A DNA stretch of 64,000 bases from Escherichia coli. GTDB lineage: Bacteria; Pseudomonadota; Gammaproteobacteria; Enterobacterales; Enterobacteriaceae. Both the position numbers and the translations under genes were made by a program. The DNA lies in NCBI RefSeq assembly GCF_003334255.1, contig NZ_QOWU01000020.1. One strand, 5' to 3'. Below the pieces are notes generated by a model that was not told the origin of the DNA, did not search any database, and saw only the letters and a list, made by a program, of their open reading frames with translations. Positions 48,672-49,057 of the stretch are shown piece by piece. The number at the start of each line of letters is the position of its first letter. Position 1 is the first letter of the stretch.

Positions 48672-49057
48672 TGGGCCTGATGTGGGGATTATTCAGCGTC
48701 ATTATTGCCTCAGTTGCGCAATTAAGCCTGGGTTTTGCGGCGAGTCATCTGCCGCCGATGACGCACTTATGGGATTTTATCGCGGCTCTGTTAGCTTTTG
48801 GCCTGGATGCCCGGATACTGTTACTCGGGCTGCTGGGTTATCTGCTTTCCGTTTTTTGTTGGTATAAAACGCTTCATAAACTTGCGCTAAGCAAAGCCTA
48901 TGCCTTGCTCAGTATGAGTTATGTGCTGGTATGGATTGCTTCAATGGTACTTCCCGGCTGGGAAGGGACTTTTTCGCTGAAAGCACTACTGGGAGTAGCC
49001 TGTATTATGAGCGGGTTGATGCTGATTTTCCTGCCCACGACAAAACAACGTTACTGA
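48671..49057 (+). CDS. arnF: Undecaprenyl-phosphate-Ara4N flippase subunit
   Basis: 128-aa ORF ([10 protein letters not shown]…) reached by trimming track ORF 48389..49057; ATG overlaps arnE stop. Confidence 0.8.

Follow-up and report, generated by a model that had tools for sequence, protein, structure and literature searches.

Tail-to-tail overlap of arnF and pmrD in Escherichia coli: a genuine seven-nucleotide overlap at what looks like a compact, inherited junction

In Escherichia coli, the last gene of the arn operon, arnF, and the gene for the connector protein PmrD converge on the same few nucleotides, which raises the question of whether transcription of either gene bears on the other. 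PmrD is activated by PhoP and protects phospho-PmrA (PMC3140997, PMC2565834). We addressed this question in a window of 64,000 nt, the whole stretch of DNA analysed here (contig NZ_QOWU01000020.1). A first-pass annotation had placed both stop codons within the heptamer TTACTGA, had argued that there is no room for terminators, and had read the arrangement as a built-in antisense coupling between an effector operon and the connector that activates its regulator. This interpretation is partly supported by the results below. The relevant features are:

48671-49057, plus strand: arnF, 128 aa, last gene of arnBCADTEF (open reading frame list and RefSeq)
49051-49057, both strands: shared heptamer TTACTGA (direct reading, and the 7-nt overlap in RefSeq)
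49051-49317, minus strand: pmrD, 267 nt, 88 aa from the annotated ATG at 49317, Pfam domain PF11183
49369-49385, minus strand: PhoP-box-like direct repeat CGTTGA-TAAAG-AGTTTA (CGTTGA-N5-AGTTTA) in the menE-pmrD spacer, found by inspection
49427-50782, minus strand: menE, which ends the men operon; it shares its strand with pmrD and lies upstream of it across a spacer of 109 nt

Read directly from the sequence, the plus strand at 49040-49059 is ACAAAACAACGTTACTGAGT. The arnF frame ends with ...CAA CGT TAC TGA, its stop TGA lying at 49055-49057 on the plus strand, and the pmrD frame on the complement ends with ...AAA ACT CAG TAA, its stop TAA being the complement of 49051-49053. The 3′ ends of the two genes thus lie on opposite strands, with 49051-49057 common to both coding sequences, and direct reading, open reading frame list and RefSeq annotation all agree with the heptamer and stop codons first proposed. 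RefSeq gives the identical 7-nt overlap in all records inspected (strain GF4, two divergent E. coli alleles and K-12 MG1655, in the latter as arnF 2372892..2373278 and pmrD complement 2373272..2373538), and the window shows 0 mismatches to MG1655 in the 8 kb that surround the site. Both coding sequences are real: searches yielded 68 PmrD homologues, most with Pfam PF11183, and more than 200 homologues named ArnF, which occur throughout Escherichia, Citrobacter and Salmonella. The overlap is therefore confirmed as a genuine one between two real genes.

It is also already known, being part of the reference annotation, while the overlap of the transcripts is already contained in a published excludon catalogue (PMC12288877), and the arrangement is fairly ordinary. 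Huvet & Stumpf counted 75 convergent overlapping pairs in an E. coli reference genome, and movement of stop codons is the usual proposed origin of such overlaps (PMC4161906, PMC2716372). Like other pairs ascribed to drift of 3′ ends and stop codons, arnF and pmrD are encoded on opposite strands, have a few 3′ nucleotides in common, both stops among them, show variable C-terminal tails and keep the overlap among close relatives; we found no feature that sets them apart from the other members of this group of about 75 (PMC4161906). Within 50 kb around the locus, arnF-pmrD is the sole overlapping pair among the convergent pairs of the gene table.

The plus strand carries arnBCADTEF, whose distal genes are tightly packed: arnT and arnE overlap by 4 nt (ATGA, 48336-48339) and arnE and arnF by 1 nt (TAATG, 48669-48673), junctions that look typical of translational coupling. 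The minus strand carries menFDHBCE, the 109-nt spacer and pmrD. Given this proximity of menE on the same strand, men read-through could add to transcription of the pmrD strand. The PhoP-box-like repeat in the spacer is the sole match within the window; we took the consensus and the promoter architecture from PMC3335776 and assigned the repeat by eye. The putative promoter of pmrD that it presumably marks is separated from the arnF stop by about 310-330 nt, whereas the arn promoter lies about 7.6 kb from the arnF/pmrD junction.

Several variants of the pmrD region deserve mention. The pmrD frame is open upstream of the annotated start (49318-49347, minus strand) up to a GTG at 49347, giving an open reading frame of 98 aa; several candidate start codons in this region are discussed in a preprint on Shigella pmrD (10.1101/2021.07.26.453917). 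In E. coli O80:H26 EC-107, an IS1A element occupies the menE-pmrD spacer (locus L032, 1179-1876), in or beside the pmrD promoter, and both arnF and pmrD are intact. Three E. coli PmrD variants of 103 aa (P0016, P0017, P0030) carry a C-terminal frameshift from about residue 75 and extend 15 codons further into the antisense strand of arnF, resulting in a much longer overlap of the coding sequences; one of them, from a 5.16-Mb chromosome, carries the annotation "polymyxin B resistance protein PmrD".

How do the two transcripts end? In the absence of intergenic DNA, RNA polymerase has to run beyond both stop codons, and each transcript must enter the other gene. We scanned for intrinsic terminators after the arnF and pmrD stops and found none by motif. 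A search for hairpins with a trailing U-tract, covering 450 nt per strand in the window and 10 related loci, returned nothing canonical and nothing conserved; the sole candidate in E. coli is a hairpin separated by 17 nt from a short U-run, and within 180 nt of each stop there is no hairpin that has a U-tract. Neither an inverted repeat nor a palindrome, as a bidirectional hairpin terminator would need, was found at or near 49051-49057. The junction RNA is also poorly structured: on the arn strand, 91 nt of it fold worse than 198 of 200 shuffled controls (z = +1.79), and on the pmrD strand the fold is unremarkable (z = +0.73). With 301 nt folded per strand, stability did not exceed that of shuffles, and no Rfam family matched within 47000-51000 at E ≤ 1.

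Together with the absence of intergenic DNA and the published listing of the pair as an excludon (PMC12288877), the lack of an intrinsic terminator after either stop upholds the view that the transcripts are antisense to each other at their 3′ ends. The claim that there is no room for terminators holds as far as canonical terminators and palindromes are concerned, but is too strong as worded, as terminators can lie inside the opposing coding sequence and Rho can stop untranslated read-through on both sides, where the downstream RNAs contain more C than G. A related possibility is that non-canonical termination or pause signals embedded in the coding sequences stop both polymerases within a few tens of nucleotides, which would leave effectively no coupling. 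Simple motif scans may indeed miss weak or non-canonical terminators, and transcription is often low for the distal genes of long operons. However, the absence of a hairpin with U-tract over 180 nt, the lack of anything conserved in the 10 related loci, a junction RNA less structured than shuffled controls, and the classification of the pair as overlapping in published RNA-seq (PMC12288877) make this quite unlikely.

Rho loads on untranslated, unstructured, C-rich RNA. Two stretches downstream of the stops have these sequence properties (untranslated, C-rich, G-poor and poorly structured over about 80 nt):

49058-49135, plus strand: candidate Rho loading region after the arnF stop, antisense to the 3′ end of pmrD; 26 C and 16 G in 78 nt (C/G 1.62), poorly structured
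48893-49030, minus strand: candidate Rho loading region after the pmrD stop (offsets +21 to +158), antisense to the 3′ end of arnF; C/G 1.5-1.7

The C/G ratio amounts to 1.4-1.6 over about 300 nt after arnF and to 1.5-1.7 over about 160 nt after pmrD, compared with a window median of 1.09, so that both fall at about the 75th to 90th percentile of the window. From composition and structure we infer that both transcripts most likely end by Rho inside the opposing gene. By analogy with other convergent pairs, head-on collision of polymerases is a possible second way of ending when both genes are active (10.1101/2022.10.23.513370). No entries for pmrD or arnF were found in the transcript-end supplements of the preprint by Adams et al.

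The one notable hairpin of the region lies inside arnF (48887-48912, minus strand; it also forms on the plus strand). It has 11 bp, is more stable than shuffles (z = -3.35), is located about 140-165 nt past the pmrD stop and is conserved in most relatives. We considered it as an RNA element, in particular as a stabiliser of the pmrD mRNA 3′ end, and rejected it: the hairpin occurs just as much in taxa that lack pmrD, a covariation test was negative (128 of 500 shuffles scored at least as high), and the codons of the conserved peptide LSKAYALLS explain it.

Such findings bear on the possibility that antisense transcription acts mainly from the pmrD side, with PhoP-induced pmrD and men read-through running into arnF, arnE and arnT and lowering the distal flippase genes. 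The pmrD-strand RNA is antisense to the 3′ end of arnF, no terminator follows pmrD, and menE, upstream on the same strand behind its 109-nt spacer, could contribute. Nevertheless, we regard a dominant effect in this direction as highly improbable. Low Mg2+ induces both pmrD and arn via PhoP, PmrD and PmrA (PMC2565834, PMC3140997), and mutual antagonism would oppose the pathway. Given the distance to the arn promoter, collisions or duplex formation could act only at the very end of the operon, the C-rich antisense RNA should be ended by Rho, and the sole notable hairpin in the stretch shows no covariation.

To learn how the junction behaves among relatives, we recorded the stop-to-stop distance in 18 loci, scanning one genome per species with an alignment of PmrD (negative values denote overlap):

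E. coli-like loci: -7 nt, TTACTGA
E. fergusonii and E. marmotae: -7 nt, TTACTGA
E. albertii: -7 nt, CTACTGA (TAG replaces TAA)
S. diarizonae and S. enterica: -6 nt, TCATGA
Eleven Citrobacter loci: 0, +2, +3 or +9 nt
S. arizonae: +23 nt, arnF apparently degraded

Within E. coli the locus is nearly universal, 1.2 kb of it being present in 5420 of 5426 complete genomes and the 61-nt junction in 5237 of 5426. The 7-nt overlap is retained in the five Escherichia lineages sampled (E. coli, E. fergusonii, E. marmotae, E. albertii and one further Escherichia sp.). The C-terminal tails vary, with PmrD of 85, 87 or 88 aa and ArnF of 125-128 aa, and the sequences indicate that the exact overlap length shifts with small changes in these poorly conserved tails. 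Individual loci have lost arnF in part: in S. enterica subsp. arizonae (L015, 2756-3126) arnF matches solely as three out-of-frame pieces and is probably a pseudogene, and in E. coli SCPM-O-B-8794 (L004, 2751-2819) the last 22 residues of ArnF alone are found beside pmrD. Intestinirhabdus alba (L017) has pmrD and no arnF within 2.5 kb.

Two further loci, in which ArnF is labelled Pseudescherichia or is 78% identical to an ArnF so labelled, are without pmrD, and here arnF and menE converge with a spacer of 7 nt (L029, 1885-1897, TAA-GAGAGGA-TTA; L031, 2385-2397). This junction is either an empty site that predates the arrival of pmrD or the result of a clean loss of pmrD. Because these two pmrD-less relatives have an arnF-menE spacer of just 7 nt, we conclude from the sequences that the spacer-less arn 3′ end is a property of the chromosomal junction in the Escherichia/Salmonella/Citrobacter group and is not specific to pmrD. 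The distant PmrD homologues of K. aerogenes, Pseudocitrobacter and Rahnella sit away from arn; in Rahnella (L025, 507-2761) the distant PF11183 gene is divergent from a histidine kinase/response regulator pair and lies upstream of transporter genes. Outgroup contexts of arnF came from protein searches that gave almost exclusively Escherichia, Citrobacter and Salmonella. The spacer 3′ of arnF measures 123 nt in one outgroup locus, L030, where it contains a near-perfect palindrome of about 69 nt (2415-2485) followed by an A7 run (T7 on the opposite strand). Judged by its sequence, this palindrome might represent either a REP-like element or a bidirectional terminator; its long stem kept the simple terminator scan from calling it.

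These comparisons argue against a built-in coupling, a term that implies design: the junction of arnF with menE is equally tight without pmrD, and the spacing is not conserved between genera, being loose in Citrobacter (0 to +9 nt). In our reading of the sequences, the junction instead looks ancestral and compact, with drifting stop codons.

A functional role in the form of negative feedback is nevertheless conceivable. Read-through from arn induced by phosphorylated PmrA would cross pmrD in antisense orientation up to its promoter and measurably lower pmrD through polymerase collision, occlusion of the promoter and/or cutting of the duplex by RNase III, thereby acting as a cis brake on the connector that sustains phosphorylated PmrA. 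The geometry is favourable, pmrD being small (267 nt) with its putative promoter close to the arnF stop; no terminator follows arnF in 11 of 11 loci (the window and the 10 related ones), arnF and pmrD meet tail to tail throughout Escherichia, Salmonella and Citrobacter, and arnF-pmrD is in the excludon list (PMC12288877). Furthermore, pmrD is repressed by PmrA in Salmonella, in which the gene directly adjoins arn, whereas K. pneumoniae does not show this repression (PMC2565834). In K. aerogenes, a pmrD homologue lies away from arn; the correlation is suggestive and of the kind that an antisense model would predict.

Against such feedback stands that the repression in Salmonella is attributed to binding of PmrA to the pmrD promoter (PMC2565834, PMC3335776), so that the known feedback on pmrD is already explained by an independent mechanism at the promoter level. 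The spacer-less junction with menE makes the architecture non-specific for pmrD, the exact spacing differs between genera, and the RNA that follows arnF, being C-rich and unstructured, should attract Rho ahead of pmrD or inside it. A dsRNA entry for the locus, whether as pmrD, arnF, yfbJ or b2259, is absent from the 10 supplementary files of the p19 study; the cultures of that study probably grew under non-inducing conditions, in which neither gene would be induced. On balance, functional feedback by arn read-through appears improbable. Mutating the PmrA site in the pmrD promoter, work ascribed to Kato et al. in 2003, reportedly abolished the repression.

In E. coli K-12 the PmrA-pmrD loop is described as absent (PMC3140997), and by eye we found no convincing PmrA box in the upstream region of E. 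coli pmrD. One could imagine that, in Escherichia, where the Salmonella PmrA-box loop is said to be absent, the junction itself provides a cis-encoded, PmrA-dependent brake, in which arn read-through across pmrD and its promoter would measurably lower PmrD; we consider this unlikely. If such a brake exists, it could contribute to the cell-to-cell heterogeneity in pmrD that has been linked to polymyxin survival. As an observation on the same region, two BL21 clones with arnF-pmrD in its native context, JL1365 and JL1368, raised the colistin MIC in TOP10 (PMC8004244, Table 3). The pmrD open reading frame alone under PLtetO-1 gave no such rise, and the authors suspect another element in the fragment (PMC8004244).

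Comparison with known systems leads to a similar picture. ExcludonFinder (Sanmartin et al., NAR 2025, PMC12288877) lists arnF-pmrD among 165 convergent excludons present in at least 50% of 58 MG1655 transcriptomes and singles it out as a pair acting in one pathway; its criterion, overlapping transcript boundaries, applies almost automatically to overlapping expressed coding sequences and thus speaks for the existence, not the extent or effect, of the overlap. As in other convergent excludons (Sesto et al. 2013; ExcludonFinder), arnF and pmrD are convergent neighbours with transcripts reported to overlap at their 3′ ends in MG1655. Classical excludons, however, are defined by demonstrated mutually exclusive expression and often by a long antisense UTR, whereas arnF and pmrD are co-induced in low Mg2+. 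The overlapping bidirectional terminators (Ju et al. 2019; Wang et al. 2022, 10.1101/2022.10.23.513370) likewise involve convergent genes without a Rho-independent terminator on either side, where collision is possible, but they encode a hairpin that pauses polymerases from both directions, a palindrome that the arnF-pmrD junction does not have. Termination by collision is, moreover, reportedly less efficient for lowly expressed pairs, and arnF and pmrD are weakly expressed under standard conditions. The logical outcome of the PmrA feedback in Salmonella (Kato, Latifi & Groisman 2003) would be the same as that of antisense feedback, as an active PmrA regulon lowers pmrD; its established mechanism, however, is binding of PmrA upstream in the pmrD promoter and not antisense transcription.

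We therefore favour, as the probable explanation, that the overlap arose passively at an inherited compact junction and that any regulatory effect is modest. The 3′ end of the arn operon would have been placed at a chromosomal junction that is essentially without spacer in the whole clade, and the C-terminal tails and stops of arnF and pmrD would have drifted by a few bases (-7 in Escherichia, -6 in Salmonella, 0 to +9 in Citrobacter). With intrinsic and bidirectional hairpin terminators absent from both strands, each transcript would pass its own stop and run into the opposite gene as untranslated, C-rich RNA. It would most likely be ended by Rho and/or, when both genes are active, by head-on collisions, within about 100 to a few hundred nucleotides. 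The expected outcome is an unavoidable sense/antisense overlap of the 3′ ends of the transcripts, of the convergent excludon type. Its effect on pmrD and arnF is probably modest and secondary to promoter control, i.e., activation by PhoP and, in Salmonella, repression by PmrA. The short distances speak against this passive origin with little effect: with a promoter about 310 nt from the arnF stop and a pmrD gene of 267 nt, moderate read-through from arn could matter more than we assume. A regulatory antisense coupling of arn and pmrD is a plausible hypothesis.

The arnF-pmrD finding mostly confirms known facts. Its wider interest derives from PmrD as the link between PhoPQ and PmrAB, the controllers of lipid-A modification and of polymyxin and colistin tolerance. 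If read-through from arn truly damped pmrD, this would add a feedback at the level of transcription to a clinically relevant circuit, and excludon-type regulation could be tested cleanly at a junction that is easy to engineer.
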